From: Escherichia phage ECBP2
Sequence record: NC_018859.1
Length of the DNA: 64,000 bases
Strand: one strand, 5' to 3'
Shown: one piece after another, positions 30,988-34,591 of the stretch
Layout: each line of letters opens with the position of its first letter
How positions within the stretch are numbered: position 1 is the stretch's first letter
The notes under the pieces: model-generated
What the model was told of the DNA's origin: nothing
Seen by the model: only the letters and a program-made list of their open reading frames with translations
Databases searched by the model: none
Made by a program: the position numbers and the translations under genes

Positions 30988-31290
30988 CTAGATTAGATCA
31001 TAATACTTAATAATATCAGAGAGCTTAAACTCTCGAATGTCATTCTTGTCATTGTCCCAAGCGGTCATTATCCAACAAGGTTTGCCCCCATTATGATAAC
31101 GGGAAGAAGCAACTGAGGTTCGTATAGGAACAACGGAGCGGTCTGCAATTTCACCTCTCCAATTACGATAGCTAAAGCGAAGAGTTTGTGTCGTAGATAC
31201 TTGATCATTTGTATTTTCCTTGTTCATAGATTCAAAGACTTCCTTCTCTTCAGGAGTCTCTAGATTTTTTAAATTCGCGTCTTGCATCAT
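30988..31290 (-). CDS. hypothetical protein (last gene of the - strand module)
   Basis: ORF 30988..31347; the internal ATG-ATG at 31290 is preceded by AAGGAAG, which limits overlap with the upstream HNH gene. Confidence 0.45.
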   Translation of the reverse strand: MMQDANLKNLETPEEKEVFESMNKENTNDQVSTTQTLRFSYRNWRGEIADRSVVPIRTSVASSRYHNGGKPCWIMTAWDNDKNDIREFKLSDIIKYYDLI

Positions 31291-31654
31291 TCTCTTCCTT
31301 AGTTTTAATCTTATGGCAAGGTTCTTTACACAAGACTTGAAAGCCATCTACCTCAACCAAAGCTCTCTCAATGATTTCATCCCAAGATGCTTCATGGTCC
31401 ACTGGAACAATAGGATTAATGTGGTCAACAGCTACTTCCTTAAGAGGAGAGTCATTACCACACATGGCACACTTGTAGTGCATTGCCAGCTTGCCAGTCT
31501 TAGGGTTGATCTTACGTTCTGTCTGAGCTTCTTTGAGAGCATCAAACATAGGCTTCCACTTTCTAGTCAGAGAACGAATCCCTGACTTGATGAAGGAATT
31601 ATAACGTGCTTCAGTCCACTGGTTTGAACATCTTGTTTTCTCAGCCTTCGCCAT
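31250..31654 (-). CDS. HNH endonuclease
   Basis: 134 aa with CAMCG...AVDHINPI...LCKEPCH, the HNH zinc-finger pattern. Confidence 0.6.
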   Translation of the reverse strand: MAKAEKTRCSNQWTEARYNSFIKSGIRSLTRKWKPMFDALKEAQTERKINPKTGKLAMHYKCAMCGNDSPLKEVAVDHINPIVPVDHEASWDEIIERALVEVDGFQVLCKEPCHKIKTKEENDARREFKKSRDS

Positions 31655-31832
31655 AACCTACATCCATATCAGCGTCTTCCCAAATACGTTTGTTAATACG
31701 ATGTGATTCTTTTTCAGCACGAGGGATACGTCCAGTACGACGATCAAATGCTTGATGTTTAATCTTCTGGTCTTTACGAGACTCACGATTAGAGGAATTT
31801 TCATCATACGAACGATAGTCAAATTTACCCAT
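31641..31832 (-). CDS. hypothetical basic protein
   Basis: 63-aa ORF rich in Arg/Lys/Asp. Confidence 0.3.
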   Translation of the reverse strand: MGKFDYRSYDENSSNRESRKDQKIKHQAFDRRTGRIPRAEKESHRINKRIWEDADMDVGYGEG

Positions 31833-31845
31833 TATAATATCCTTA

Positions 31846-32664
31846 TTACCAAGTTTTATCTAACCATGACCATTCAAAGAGGTCACCTTCAGCTTGTCCG
31901 ACGAAGAGCAATCGAGCATTTTCTAGCATCTTAGCTTCTGCTTCTTCCTCGAACCTCTTATAGTATTCCATTCGTATAATGTGATAAAGAGTACACTTAT
32001 CGAATACCTTCTCAATAAGTTTGATTGCAGCCTTGCTACCAATACCTTTACGACGCATAACTAGGTTGCCACCCCACATCATTTCAACTTTCTCACCACA
32101 TCCGGGGATGTTGTCTGTACTGTCCCCAATCAACATCTGATAGAAGAAGTTCTGCCATGCTACTTCCTCTGATACATAATGAGGAGGTACTTCTTTCTGT
32201 CGTTCACCACAAGCCCAGCGATAATGCCATCCGGGAGTGATTAACAAATCCTTATCACGAGTACAGATGATAGTGTTCTTCTCAATACGTTGTCGTTCAG
32301 CGAGTGCATCATCTGCTTCTCTACCAAACACCTCAACGTACTGATAATGTTCTTTGATGTAATCACTAACGTTCTGCCAATGATGTGGCCTTTCTCCCGG
32401 AGGTCGGTTAGCTTTGTAACCTTGTTGCTGAGCAATATCAAATCGGAAGTTACCACCTTCACTAAAATAGAAGACAGTTCTTTCACAACCAGCTCTTGAG
32501 ATGATTACATCAATCTTATGTTGGAGACGTTCAATCAAGAATCCATAATCAACTGGAACACGACCTGTGTCTAGAAAAGGATGCTCTTGTGTAAGAGCAC
32601 CAACCTCATACCGTAGAACATCTCCGTCCACAATCGCTACTTCTGGATAAGATATATCACTCAT
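31846..32664 (-). CDS. 5'-3' exonuclease / flap endonuclease (FEN, PIN-like)
   Basis: VAIVDGD, EADD, DKD and GDSTDNIPG motifs; ATG at 32664 follows GGAGGAA (ORF-track start at 32715 is further upstream). Confidence 0.8.
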   Translation of the reverse strand: MSDISYPEVAIVDGDVLRYEVGALTQEHPFLDTGRVPVDYGFLIERLQHKIDVIISRAGCERTVFYFSEGGNFRFDIAQQQGYKANRPPGERPHHWQNVSDYIKEHYQYVEVFGREADDALAERQRIEKNTIICTRDKDLLITPGWHYRWACGERQKEVPPHYVSEEVAWQNFFYQMLIGDSTDNIPGCGEKVEMMWGGNLVMRRKGIGSKAAIKLIEKVFDKCTLYHIIRMEYYKRFEEEAEAKMLENARLLFVGQAEGDLFEWSWLDKTW

Positions 32665-33100
32665 GATTTCCTCCATGGTGTCGGATAAGGTGACAATTAG
32701 CACAGAGCATGACATATTTATCTAACTCTGCCTTAAGTTTAGGCCAGTACCGATAGTATGAAGGGTTTTCGTCTTTTGTTTGTTCATCCAGATGATGGAA
32801 CTGCATAACACAAGGTGGGTATTCTTTTTTACAATCTAAGCAAACACCTCCCATGTATTCTATTGCTTTTATCTTAAGATCTCTATTTGCCTTATTAGCA
32901 ACCTCTTGCCGTCTTTTTCTATTGGCAGCATACCAAGCTCTTTTCTTTTCTGCGGTACAAATCTTACAAGTTCCAGTCACACCCTTAGTGCACACCTTAT
33001 TGGGGTGATATTCTGTTAGGGCTTTTTCAACCCCACAAACGTTACACACCTTAGTATCTGCATCCACAATTGCTACTTCAGGATAGATTACATCAGGCAT
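32657..33100 (-). CDS. HNH endonuclease (zinc-finger type) carrying a copy of the FEN N-terminus
   Basis: CNVCG...CKIC...FHHL...LCANCH; ATG at 33100 follows GGAGAG (ORF-track start at 33124 is TTG); first 15 codons mirror the FEN start. Confidence 0.6.
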   Translation of the reverse strand: MPDVIYPEVAIVDADTKVCNVCGVEKALTEYHPNKVCTKGVTGTCKICTAEKKRAWYAANRKRRQEVANKANRDLKIKAIEYMGGVCLDCKKEYPPCVMQFHHLDEQTKDENPSYYRYWPKLKAELDKYVMLCANCHLIRHHGGNHE

Positions 33101-33692
33101 AGAGATCTCTCCGTGTCTGTGCAATACTGTACTCTAAATACTCCACTGCCTCTTCTACAGAACCATCATTAAAGAGAAGATAGGTTGAAAGGTTCGTGCC
33201 TTCAATATAGGAACGAGAGTCTCCTTCAAAAGTACATCCATCCCGATAAATCTGAATTACTCGAACATCGAAATGCTTTTCCAGTTCTTCAACTTCTGCT
33301 TTGAATCCACCATCAGAGAAAACGATAACATCGTTCTGTCCTAGCAGTTGTTGTTGTTGAATGCTGCTAACAGCAAGTTTACCCATGCAGGTATCCCCAA
33401 ACATTGGCTTCAGATAGTTCTCACTAGTTGAAATCATCAAATCTCGAACTGACTTACCGCCCCATTCAGGACGGTTATGTTCTTTCCACTCACGGTCGTT
33501 GTACAGCTCCATGAACTCATGAAGAGGGAGACCTAATGCAGCAGCAGCCACTCGATACATAGGCTCCTTAAAAGCCTTTACATGAGGTCTAAACTCATCG
33601 TTACCGAGTGTCTTCTCTAACCAAGAATTAGCGATTGTATCTTTACCACAACCCGGTGGTCCATTCAGAATTACTACTAATGGTTTACTCAT
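33093..33692 (-). CDS. P-loop kinase (putative deoxynucleoside monophosphate kinase)
   Basis: Walker A GPPGCGKDT at residues 11-19; start overlaps the upstream stop (TAATGA). Confidence 0.5.
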   Translation of the reverse strand: MSKPLVVILNGPPGCGKDTIANSWLEKTLGNDEFRPHVKAFKEPMYRVAAAALGLPLHEFMELYNDREWKEHNRPEWGGKSVRDLMISTSENYLKPMFGDTCMGKLAVSSIQQQQLLGQNDVIVFSDGGFKAEVEELEKHFDVRVIQIYRDGCTFEGDSRSYIEGTNLSTYLLFNDGSVEEAVEYLEYSIAQTRRDLYA

Positions 33693-34342
33693 TATTGAAT
33701 CATCCCTTGAAGATCTTCTTTATCAAAGTGCTTCTCTACTACCGCTTCATACAGATCACGATTCTCTGCATAACGGCGATAGAAAGTTCCGTGTGAAATT
33801 CCCAGCTCCTGCTGGATGTGATCATGAGGTATTCCAAGGAAGAGCATAGAGAACATGCTTGCCATTTTCTTGGTATCCATAATATCACTTAAGTCTTGGA
33901 AGAAGAAAAAGATTCTAGATTCCAAGAATGGGTCTCCAGTAGAGTCATGCTTATCCATCGCAATCTCTAAAGGACTTTCCCACGAGTTCATCTCAGGAGG
34001 TCTAAACATATCAGCCTCTGGAATAGAGTAGATACGTCGGTCTCCAACTGTCTGACGGTTAGAACGAATTGACCAGATGATATTCTTAACACGATAAGTC
34101 ATGTGCTCAATATCTTTTTCATCAGTGAGCAGAAGTTCTTCTTGCTTTGCAAACACAAAACGCCAAGCGTTCAGTAACACTTCCTGAGCAACATCCTCTG
34201 CTTCGTGATAATCTTTAATGTCATACATAAAATACTTATGCACAACTTTCCAGTTCTCCCGATAGAATTCATCGAAGGTTGGATAATACTTAATAGGAAT
34301 GCCATGAATACGATAGCGTGTAGGTGTTGTCTTTTTCTTCAT
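33692..34342 (-). CDS. sigma-70 family (ECF-like) sigma factor
   Basis: Region-2-like [14 protein letters not shown] and region-4 HTH-like [23 protein letters not shown]; RBS AAGGACGA. Confidence 0.6.
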
Positions 34343-34366
34343 AAGTCGTCCTTAACTTACTTTACA

Positions 34367-34591
34367 TTAAACTACGCAGAATAAATACATAGCCGTTTCA
34401 GGGCAAGGGATGGCTGTCTGAATGCCACTCACTTTAATCCACATATCCTCTTCAGAGTCATAATAGGCCCAATAGGATTGATCTCCATCTACAAAGAACT
34501 TAAAGGTTCGTCCCCAAATCTGGTTGTTATACTCCCATACTGCATGAAATTGAGTAACACCTTCTGGTATTGTAAGTTCCGCTCTGATCAT
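34367..34591 (-). CDS. hypothetical protein
   Basis: 74-aa ORF. Confidence 0.4.
   Translation of the reverse strand: MIRAELTIPEGVTQFHAVWEYNNQIWGRTFKFFVDGDQSYWAYYDSEEDMWIKVSGIQTAIPCPETAMYLFCVV

Follow-up and report, generated by a model that had tools for sequence, protein, structure and literature searches.

The 5' end of a flap endonuclease (FEN)-type exonuclease gene in Escherichia phage ECBP2 very probably harbors a free-standing HNH homing endonuclease cassette (33055..32620) with a "start-swap" architecture, in which the nuclease takes over the translation start of the exonuclease and provides a re-coded substitute in return. The window analyzed is the whole 64,000-nucleotide stretch of sequence record NC_018859.1, and all genes at the locus lie on its minus strand:

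33093..33692, minus strand: upstream resident gene encoding a dNMP kinase-like P-loop protein (from the open reading frame (ORF) list)
33107..33112, minus strand: resident Shine-Dalgarno (SD) sequence GGAGAG, 6 nt before the ATG at 33100
33056..33100, minus strand: copy A, the resident exonuclease codons 1-15, which now open the HNH ORF (MPDVIYPEVAIVDAD)
32620..33055, minus strand: proposed mobile cassette of 436 nt, comprising an HNH body that lacks a start codon, an SD, an ATG and re-coded exonuclease codons 1-15
32657..33100, minus strand: HNH endonuclease ORF, 147 aa plus stop, with 15 borrowed residues followed by the nuclease
32957..33052, minus strand: N-terminal Cys-rich module, HNH residues 17-48 (alignment A2)
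32678..32842, minus strand: putative beta-beta-alpha-Me nuclease core, HNH residues 87-141 (A2 and structural matches)
32669..32674, minus strand: cassette-borne SD GGAGGA, 4 nt before the ATG at 32664
32620..32664, minus strand: copy B, the cassette's re-coded exonuclease codons 1-15 (MSDISYPEVAIVDGD)
31846..32664, minus strand: 5'-3' exonuclease (FEN-like) ORF of 272 aa (PHROG 107)

The TGA stop of the kinase-like gene, which is annotated as deoxynucleoside monophosphate kinase in phages Bas88, 4E8 and PAS59, overlaps codons 2-3 of the HNH ORF (ATGCCTGA), and the TGA of the HNH ORF (32659..32657) in turn overlaps codons 2-3 of copy B. The cassette boundaries are ambiguous by 4 nt, as AGAT is common to both. 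The exonuclease ORF runs without interruption from the ATG at 32664 (predicted N-terminus (M)SDISYPEVAIVDGDVLR, MSDISYPE) and consists of resident sequence again from 32619 downstream, while the predicted peptide across the leader/body junction of the HNH protein reads ...VDAD-TKVC.... The cassette-borne GGAGGA falls within the codons for the HNH C-terminal HHGG, a terminus conserved family-wide as HHGG or HYGG (A2), and these codons may thus serve a dual use as protein-coding sequence and SD. A scan for promoters and terminators inside the cassette yielded nothing above chance and no convincing promoter. Additionally, a second HNH gene is situated at 31654..31250 and is conserved in all relatives examined.

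Copies A (33100..33056) and B (32664..32620) are in register from their ATGs and identical at 35 of 45 nt, differing at the other 10 (ATGCCTGATGTAATCTATCCTGAAGTAGCAATTGTGGATGCAGAT vs ATGAGTGATATATCTTATCCAGAAGTAGCGATTGTGGACGGAGAT; 78% identity). Their similarity ends after codon 15, and no homology beyond the SD exists upstream of the two ATGs. The first-pass annotation had placed the HNH start at ATG 33100 (MPDVIYPEVAIVDAD...) and the exonuclease start at ATG 32664 (MSDISYPEVAIVDGD...), each with a separate SD, and both starts and both SDs (GGAGAG at 33112..33107, GGAGGA at 32674..32669) hold; its estimate of about 38 nt of near-identical sequence is fair for the core of the repeat, the true unit being 45 nt. 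The similarity that it proposed to check by alignment proved to be far above the background of the window. When copy B was compared with every 45-mer on both strands of the 64-kb window (approximately 128,000 positions; mean 11.6 matches, sd 3.0), copy A was the top non-self match with 35, and the runner-up reached 26.

Comparison with phages lacking the HNH gene locates the insertion exactly after exonuclease codon 15. The cassette is absent from Bas88, TH34, 4E8, PAS59 and phiEco32, where the kinase gene runs directly into the exonuclease gene and overlaps its ATG. Aligned to these five relatives, the window matches on both sides of a 436-nt gap and is otherwise collinear with them. In alignment A1, copy A matches the exonuclease start of TH34 at 45 of 45 nt and is near-identical to those of Bas88, 4E8 and PAS59. 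Copy B differs from all of the relatives, and identity to them returns at codon 16; from codon 6 on, the window exonuclease is 96.7% identical to that of Bas88. The GGAGAG upstream of copy A is likewise identical to that preceding the exonuclease ATG in HNH-less relatives, a correspondence indicating that it is the original SD of the exonuclease, now serving the HNH ORF. Flank identity in 100-nt windows against four relatives shows mosaicism near the site (the kinase 3' end is closer to TH34 and the exonuclease closer to Bas88), which is not diagnostic, and no clear co-conversion tract or breakpoint attributable to the cassette emerged from it.

Phage Bas93 is the sole cassette carrier among 96 matching phage records. 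Its cassette body is identical to that of the window at 385 of 391 nt (98.5%; 6 differences) and its copy B at 45 of 45 nt, whereas the flanks of the two phages share only 60%, 71% and 75% identity (60% and 75% in the 300-nt flanks). In Bas93, the cassette occupies the same codon, but the resident start to which it is joined is another one, of the phiEco32 type (MEDVKLPEVAIVDAD); the copy A sequences of the two phages differ at 13 of 45 nt. Since copy B is constant and copy A host-specific, it is the HNH ORF that now begins with the native gene start, and the exonuclease relies on a re-coded start brought in with the cassette. A cassette 98.5-100% identical between backgrounds with flanks of 60-75% identity has undergone horizontal transfer, and its 6 differences in 391 nt point to an event that was probably recent.

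A second cassette type, P0006 (58% amino acid identity), equipped with a copy B of its own, occupies this site in a background of the phiEco32 type. Furthermore, the Salmonella phages PKM.Lu.22.1 and PKM.Hi.22.6, whose flanks are 99.4% identical, are distinguished by a 416-nt cassette built in the same way; its copy B is altered at 9 of 30 nt, and four of its five changed codons are synonymous, including CGT>AGG and CTT>TTA/TTG. Presence and absence at one precise site in close relatives, as seen in the Kuravirus set and the PKM pair, is the distribution of a homing gene. These relatives and Bas93 uphold the first-pass claim of a homing-type HNH gene inside the 5' end of an exonuclease gene, with that end present twice, and the full match of copy A to the TH34 start confirms that the HNH protein carries the exonuclease N-terminus. 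The accompanying idea of an insertion footprint that duplicated the 5' end stands as far as the place of insertion is concerned but fails for the repeat, which did not arise at insertion, copy B being part of the travelling element. The expression "intron-less FEN" should read "cassette-less FEN", as no Rfam family, and hence no intron-like RNA, was detected at E<=1 in 31000..34500; together with the contiguous exonuclease ORF and the lack of any Pfam intein/Hint domain, this sets the element apart from intron- or intein-encoded endonucleases.

The exonuclease ORF belongs to PHROG 107 (exonuclease, E=3e-61). As a single sequence, it scored below the cut-off for Pfam 5_3_exonuc_N and had no match in a PDB search; a profile of 12 phage exonucleases, however, matches the Taq 5' nuclease (E=2e-7) and T5 FEN. 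Residues D13, D15, D118, D119, D137 and D139 are invariant, and PHROG assignment, profile and acidic residues together place the protein in the FEN/5'-3' exonuclease family. The cassette is inserted right after codon 15, at the invariant DxD motif. D13 and D15 may represent the first metal-binding Asp residues of FENs, a correspondence for which the profile alignment stops short of the N-terminus and its DxD.

The HNH ORF belongs to PHROG 2255 ("HNH endonuclease", E=7e-40), and 101 homologues were collected. In A2 (40 sequences), C87, C90, H102, H103, N112, C133, N135, C136, H137 and H141 are invariant, and all are present in the window protein, which thereby displays the His-His...Asn...His arrangement with flanking CxxC zinc ligands of the HNH superfamily. 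Residues K17, C19, C22, C37, C45 and C48 of the Cys-rich module occupy invariant or nearly invariant columns in the same alignment, and the module is presumed to be a zinc finger that may bind DNA. The Pfam HNH models (PF01844 / PF13392) gave no HNH family on the window protein even at E<=10, PF01844 being found only in the distant homologues P0092 and P0093, and an HNH profile search of PDB sequences returned no match. The AF2 model (pLDDT 88.7) has as its best Foldseek matches, all weak (E>=0.08), Cas9 HNH, Gme HNH 4h9d (prob 0.97), T4 endonuclease VII and McrA. Residues 1-15 are of low confidence and devoid of secondary structure in this model, and the borrowed leader is therefore predicted to be unstructured. 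An in-frame GTG at codon 12 is an alternative candidate start for the HNH ORF.

Association with exonuclease starts extends across the family of this HNH protein. An exonuclease-like [LIVMF][LIVMFT]D ("hhD") leader of 3-59 aa precedes the first CxxC in 51 of 83 close homologues, and the HNH gene lies directly upstream of a 5'-3' exonuclease gene in all 11 metagenomic contexts looked up and immediately upstream of one in 8 of the 12 best scan loci. More distant HNH relatives do not occupy this position. A scan of IMG/VR with the HNH alignment returned mostly such distant proteins in unrelated contexts, which were used only as an outgroup, and the metagenome scan gave a comparable picture.

Homing endonuclease genes commonly decay, and the cassette could be a former homing element that is now inert, its HNH protein a non-cleaving relic carried passively. 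Decayed homologues do occur, namely an internally deleted 75-aa version in Aeromonas phage BUCT695 and a 59-aa fragment in Vibrio phage Phriendly. Nevertheless, the window ORF has kept its full length and all of the invariant Cys, His and Asn columns, and the small distance from the Bas93 copy suggests recent transfer, which together render inertness unlikely. Even less probable is that the exonuclease 5' end was duplicated locally in tandem in this lineage, that the HNH protein has become a fixed, domesticated accessory nuclease and that the repeat is a by-product with no role in mobility. In its favor, a gene start has to have been duplicated at some stage for this architecture to arise at all, and phage HNH proteins can act as accessory factors, the second HNH gene (31654..31250) being kept in all relatives. 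Such a scenario, however, appears largely refuted by the contrast in identity between the cassette and its flanks in the window phage and Bas93, and it is further opposed by the single additional carrier among the 96 records, by a copy B that stays constant while copy A follows the host, and by the near-isogenic plus/minus pair in another family (PKM phages).

Direct repeats flanking an inserted coding sequence might also recall a target-site duplication, produced by a transposase-like or staggered-cut insertion, whose initially identical copies later diverged. This origin is refuted by repeats only 78% identical in a young cassette, one of them constant across hosts: the copies differ at 22% of positions even though the cassette is 98.5% identical to that of Bas93, and the window phage and Bas93 share one copy B despite 13 mismatches in 45 nt between their copy A sequences. 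Moreover, 45 nt is far above the usual length of such duplications, and no transposase is present (ORF list, Pfam). Accidental or convergent resemblance between two short N-terminal peptides, which only the shortness of the segment would favor, is refuted by the score of 35/45 against a background maximum of 26/45 over roughly 128,000 positions and by the complete identity of copy A to the exonuclease start of TH34.

A homing cassette with a start-swap design would operate as follows. A start-less nuclease fused in frame to resident codons 1-15 would be made from the RBS and ATG of the exonuclease, its reading start still overlapping the stop of the upstream kinase gene. The 3' end of the cassette contributes a new SD, a new ATG overlapping its own TGA and re-coded codons 1-15, which render the exonuclease ORF intact again. 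During mixed infection, the HNH protein would cut or nick the conserved DxD-encoding sequence of cassette-less genomes, and repair templated by a cassette-bearing genome would copy the 436 nt. Re-coding of copy B is postulated to break the target site and thereby confer self-immunity, to prevent repeat-mediated loss of the cassette, and to steer the broken left end toward pairing with copy A instead of copy B. Cleavage, its site and the expression scheme are deduced from the DNA. Self-immunity through re-coding is likewise a conjecture, given that the 21 nt just before the right junction depart from the resident sequence at only 3 positions.

By the usual account, homing endonucleases invade coding sequence only where an intron or intein removes them or where the host protein tolerates a split. 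Friedrich et al. (2007) reportedly described the latter for Aeh1 nrdA/mobE, a gene split by insertion of a homing endonuclease gene. "Fractured genes" with split inteins (PMC2677866) similarly contain a homing endonuclease gene within the host coding region, as does the window, with no classical intron; however, split genes yield a host protein in two pieces that is reassembled or trans-spliced, whereas the window exonuclease is encoded by a one-piece ORF through its duplicated, re-coded start.

The free-standing homing endonucleases of T4-like phages (seg, mob), which act by "intronless homing", lie between genes and possess their own starts (PMC2988022). The window element resembles them as a small nuclease ORF outside any intron or intein, sporadic among close relatives and located next to or within a conserved gene of DNA metabolism; the presumed route of spread, double-strand-break repair during mixed infection, is also shared. 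Unlike them, it lies inside the host ORF, lacks a start codon, is fused to host codons 1-15 and carries a re-coded replacement start.

A likeness in design, which does not imply homology, links the element to the fungal mitochondrial mORFs with a duplicated gene C-terminus, described for Allomyces atp6 and for Glomus atp6, atp9, cox2 and nad3 (PMC3630166). There too, an in-phase endonuclease ORF comes with a substitute for the gene end that it displaces; this imported version is diverged in DNA and conserved in protein, and the native one matches close relatives, so that the window element can be regarded as a terminal-duplication cassette at the 5' terminus. mORFs, however, replace the 3' end and leave the native C-terminus as a downstream remnant, whereas the window element replaces the 5' end and would use the native start to express the nuclease. 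Furthermore, mORF nucleases are of the LAGLIDADG or GIY-YIG type and reside in mitochondria, whereas the present one is an HNH protein in a phage.

The literature searched contained no description of such a 5' start-swap in phages, and the layout appears undescribed. It would constitute a third route into coding sequence in phages, in which the nuclease takes the translation start of the host gene and delivers a re-coded substitute; start replacement therefore permits a selfish gene to occupy the most conserved codons (the catalytic DxD) of an important replication/recombination gene without disrupting the exonuclease ORF. For annotation, the element can be recognized by an HNH ORF whose opening residues recur at the start of the following gene. 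The design also offers a compact natural template for in-frame, scarless replacement of gene starts. Matched pairs for studying target recognition and self-immunity are available in Bas88/TH34 versus the window phage and Bas93, and in PKM.Lu.22.1 versus PKM.Hi.22.6.

Outside the window, in approximately 50-kb podophages, the same cassette goes together with interruptions of the exonuclease gene that are 4-6 nt long and contain a stop, with spacers such as GAT-TA-GAT and CTN-TGA-CTN. The comparable known case is T4 mobA/gene 60, where a homing endonuclease is accompanied by a 50-nt translational bypass insert (PMC2988022; bioRxiv 10.1101/2022.08.31.505936). Both this pair and the window cassette combine a homing endonuclease gene with extra sequence that alters the adjacent host coding region, and the podophages share with T4 a short stop-containing insert in the host ORF beside the nuclease gene. 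Unlike the T4 pair, the window cassette needs no recoding because its exonuclease ORF is intact, and the podophage inserts measure 4-6 nt versus 50 nt in gene 60, bypass in podophages being putative. Simple matched-codon hopping was rejected as an account of all podophage interruptions, since GAT-TA-GTC, GAT-TA-GCT, CGA-TAGC-TAC and GAT-T-CAC do not fit, and the pattern "MQPLIDxD-TAG" (ATGCARCCNCTNATHGAYGSNGAYTAG) had zero matches in IMG/VR. A joint reading can be offered only tentatively: a widespread start-swap class on FEN DxD codons in at least three phage groups (Kuravirus/Gordonclarkvirinae, Grimontviridae and approximately 50-kb Zobellviridae-like podophages), together with podophage spacers that would need short ribosomal hopping, frameshifting or read-through. 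If true, the podophage cassettes would join T4 mobA/gene 60 as a second natural example of a homing endonuclease coupled with a translational recoding signal, which may protect its own genome from cleavage, and the podophage spacers could make HEG-associated translational recoding testable outside T4.

The HNH ORF and the 5'-3' exonuclease gene of this phiEco32-like E. coli podophage (Kuravirus, Gordonclarkvirinae) lie in the following run of genes:

34342..33692, minus strand, sigma factor
33692..33093, minus strand, dNMP-kinase-like gene
33100..32657, minus strand, HNH ORF
32664..31846, minus strand, 5'-3' exonuclease
between the exonuclease and the second HNH gene, minus strand, 63-aa ORF
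31250-31654, minus strand, second HNH gene (134 aa; PHROG 3106, E=7e-38)

Aligned in register at the ATG, the ORFs of HNH and exonuclease are identical at 35/45 nt (MPDVIYPEVAIVDAD versus MSDISYPEVAIVDGD), and the likeness stops past codon 15. These stretches are termed copy A (33056..33100, minus strand; HNH) and copy B (32620..32664, minus strand; exonuclease). Against all 45-mers on the two strands of the window, copy B scores 11.6 on average (sd 3.0); copy A reaches 35 and the runner-up 26, so the shared sequence reported at the two starts by the first-pass annotation is real; each ATG also has, as described there, a separate Shine-Dalgarno (SD), namely GGAGAG (33112..33107) for HNH and GGAGGA (32674..32669) for the exonuclease.

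Comparison with HNH-less relatives, which the same annotation had proposed, locates the insertion at codon 15/16 of the exonuclease. In Bas88, TH34, 4E8, PAS59 and phiEco32 the HNH gene is absent and the kinase gene directly overlaps the exonuclease ATG, and the window aligns with all five on either side of a gap. A 3.2-kb query around the site matches 96 phage records (top Bas88, 95%), with query coverage of no more than 88% in every one. In a seven-sequence alignment, copy A, its upstream SD and the kinase end constitute the resident arrangement (copy A 45/45 to TH34), copy B has about 10 differences from each relative, and relative-like sequence resumes exactly from codon 16, GTTCTACGG. This places the insert at 33055..32620 (436 nt, minus strand), made up in order of the HNH body (first codons ACT AAG GTG TGT, no start codon), an SD, an ATG and exonuclease codons 1-15 in re-coded form.

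A distant-mode search with the insert also found it in Escherichia phage AidaStucki_Bas93, where HNH opens with a phiEco32-type resident exonuclease start (MEDVKLPEVAIVDAD) followed by the same ACTAAGGTGTGT..., and where the cassette ends in a copy B identical to that of the window, the subsequent exonuclease body being phiEco32-type. The two cassettes agree at 385/391 positions of the body (98.5%) and 45/45 of copy B, whereas identity outside is 60% in the upstream 300 nt, 71% in copy A and 75% in the downstream 300 nt. This shows a discrete, sharply bounded unit that has moved between diverged genomes. Copy B is part of the element and copy A part of the host, and a target-site duplication is therefore ruled out: the homing-type insertion first proposed at the exonuclease start stands, but the accompanying idea that insertion itself made the duplication does not, as copy B travels with the element. 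The same site can also be filled by a second cassette type with its own copy B (MSNETPAPPEIAIIDSD): the HNH of this type, P0006, has 58% aa identity, and its background is 97% identical to Bas93 on the downstream side.

Independent confirmation of the cassette in another family is provided by two Salmonella phages. PKM.Hi.22.6 (Grimontviridae) encodes an HNH homologue (50% aa identity) directly upstream of the exonuclease; PKM.Lu.22.1, whose flanks show 99.4% identity, is missing exactly 416 nt. Without the cassette, the exonuclease start is ATG CGT ATA CTT ATT GAC GCT GAC ATT CTT. In PKM.Hi.22.6, exonuclease codons 1-6 stay, fused to HNH (MRILID|TKTCKIC), and the exonuclease restarts as ATG AGG ATA TTA CTG GAC GCT GAC ATA TTG, with 9 changes per 30 nt that are synonymous in 4/5 altered codons and include six-fold-codon switches (Arg and Leu). 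Because this re-coding adjoins 99.4%-identical flanks, it points to selection that favours divergence of the DNA while the protein is retained.

In the mechanism we propose, the element would target those codons of the exonuclease gene that are most conserved and would be built to be harmless, since its landing site is within the ORF. The nuclease frame continues from the host start and so takes over the host's signals for expression, with coupling to the stop of the kinase (ATGCCTGA), and the exonuclease receives its SD, ATG and codons 1-15 from the element, coupled to the element's own stop (ATGAGTGA). From established facts on free-standing phage homing endonucleases (PMC2988022), we infer homing by break repair, a putative cut site and probable immunity by re-coding. 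Re-coding would also keep copy B from pairing with a resected left end, a pairing that would abort transfer, and would limit deletion between the copy A and copy B repeats.

The window HNH matches PHROG 2255 (E=7e-40) and retains every invariant Cys, His and Asn column; it is not recognized by Pfam, and Foldseek against solved HNH domains gives weak matches. In its AF2 model (pLDDT 88.7), residues 1-15 are of low confidence and without secondary structure, consistent with a leader that is borrowed and not a functional domain. The exonuclease is assigned to PHROG 107. A 12-sequence profile of phage exonucleases matches the Taq and T5 5' nucleases, and in 12 diverse phage exonucleases D13 and D15, on either side of the insertion point, never vary. 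No intron-like RNA was found around the cassette and no convincing promoter inside it.

Approximately 100 homologues of the window HNH were recovered (44-96% identity). In their alignment the nuclease core opens at a nearly invariant Lys just ahead of the first CxxC and is preceded by a leader of 3 to 59 residues, which carries an exonuclease-like hhD motif (typically M-x-P/A-L-I-D-G/A) in 51/83 close homologues. HNH lies immediately upstream of, or overlaps, a 5'-3' exonuclease gene in all 11 metagenomic contexts examined, in most of which the leader is repeated in the exonuclease N-terminus (MEDITLPTLAMIDAD|TKIC with MSDITLPKIATIDGD|VLRYE; MKPLIDG|VKIC with MRPLLDGD|VLRYE). Among loci from scans, an exonuclease is directly downstream in 8/12 best HNH matches and in none of the weaker ones, nearly all of which have none within the retrieved flanks. 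Many members end in ...(N/D)ATTH* (P0011, P0015-17, P0020, P0023, P0027, P0028, P0031, P0036, P0042 and others; L084 2922-2940), an alternate-frame reading of copy B or the exonuclease start, ATGCAACCACTCATTGA; the HNH end, SD and exonuclease start therefore form a triple-purpose sequence. DNA-level conservation of this stretch exceeds that of HNH itself. Decayed HNH copies lie upstream of the exonuclease in Aeromonas phage BUCT695 (L007 1929-2156; internal deletion to 75 aa, exonuclease-like leader VKALIDA retained) and Vibrio phage Phriendly (L076 2232-2411; 59-aa fragment adjoining an apparently fragmented exonuclease). A sub-clade with a longer, different leader, MFTRLIKERDEQGKIKSYELLFDGK... 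(L010 33-521; L011 153-641; L012 2339-2827), also has an intact exonuclease (MIEKPKVAIIDGD...) as its immediate downstream neighbour.

Among described systems, the closest in design is the fungal mitochondrial mORF, an element that carries in a diverged second copy of a gene's C-terminus (PMC3630166); the cassette found here in phages mirrors it at the 5' end, with an HNH nuclease. No description of a 5' start-replacing nuclease cassette in phages was found in the literature searched, and in the BASEL paper reporting Bas93, insertions of homing endonucleases receive only a passing mention.

In ~50-kb podophage (Zobellviridae-like) contigs with the HNH family, an insert of 4-6 nt, usually containing a stop, breaks the exonuclease ORF 0-3 codons past the DxD at these loci:

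L084 2922-2990; L085 2937-3000; L087 2928-2990; L089 1916-1980
L088 1932-1990; L091 1736-1800; L009 2928-2990; L090 583-640
L077 (phage T2S1, PQ867848) 2405-2460; L228, L229, L230 and L231 near 1930-1990

GAT[TAGAT] occurs at five loci with four different cassettes; other forms are GAT[TAGTC], GAT[TAGCT], GAT[TCAC], CGA[TAGC] (twice) and CTN[TGACTN] (three times). Interruption is seen in 12/14 HNH-bearing versus 2/76 HNH-less podophage loci (Fisher p=3e-11), and divergence of the HNH proteins matches that of the host genes (44-72% versus 35-79% identity). The exonuclease body past the interruption remains open, and, restricted to unsaturated synonymous sites, dN/dS of about 0.08-0.24 indicates purifying selection on these bodies, including the 20 codons directly past the spacer. 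Because several spacers have matched codons around the stop (GAT-TA-GAT, CTT-TGA-CTT), recalling T4 mobA/gene 60, short ribosomal hops or UGA read-through are suggested by sequence; some spacers fail this pattern, and recent homing could mimic the signal. The interruption may reflect hopping or read-through, or an immunity spacer. A 4-nt insertion at the same place, CTT[CCCT]TAC (MKPLIDADILL, then a frame shift), in a pair of HNH-less IMG/VR podophage contigs (L223 1463-1530; L224 1079-1150) could be a scar, a resistance allele or a sequencing error.

Elsewhere in the window, the second HNH gene (31250-31654), annotated by record as 'HNH endonuclease' or 'terminase small subunit', keeps its position in all relatives and appears to be a core, non-mobile gene. 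A second slot with variable content lies on the 3' side of the exonuclease; it is empty here and in other phages holds a Dam methyltransferase, HNH_3/AP2-type endonuclease ORFs or two HNH genes:

L003 2610-3140 (4E8)
L004 2619-3104 (PAS59)
L078 3767-4252
L081 3785-4243
L005 3404-4244 (phiEco32)

The surroundings of the site are mosaic (33100-33450 versus 31846-32619), the kinase gene's final ~250 nt being 94-95% identical to TH34 and 83-86% to Bas88, whereas the exonuclease body (31846-32619) is nearest to Bas88 (97-100%); this could mark a recombination boundary at the nuclease gene and is not diagnostic. A terminator pattern scan alone flagged a hairpin at 32580-32601 (minus strand; 9-bp stem GGTGCTCTT-ACAC-AAGAGCATC, then T-rich CTTTTCT), which sits inside the exonuclease ORF, 19 nt downstream of the cassette junction, and is kept in relatives.
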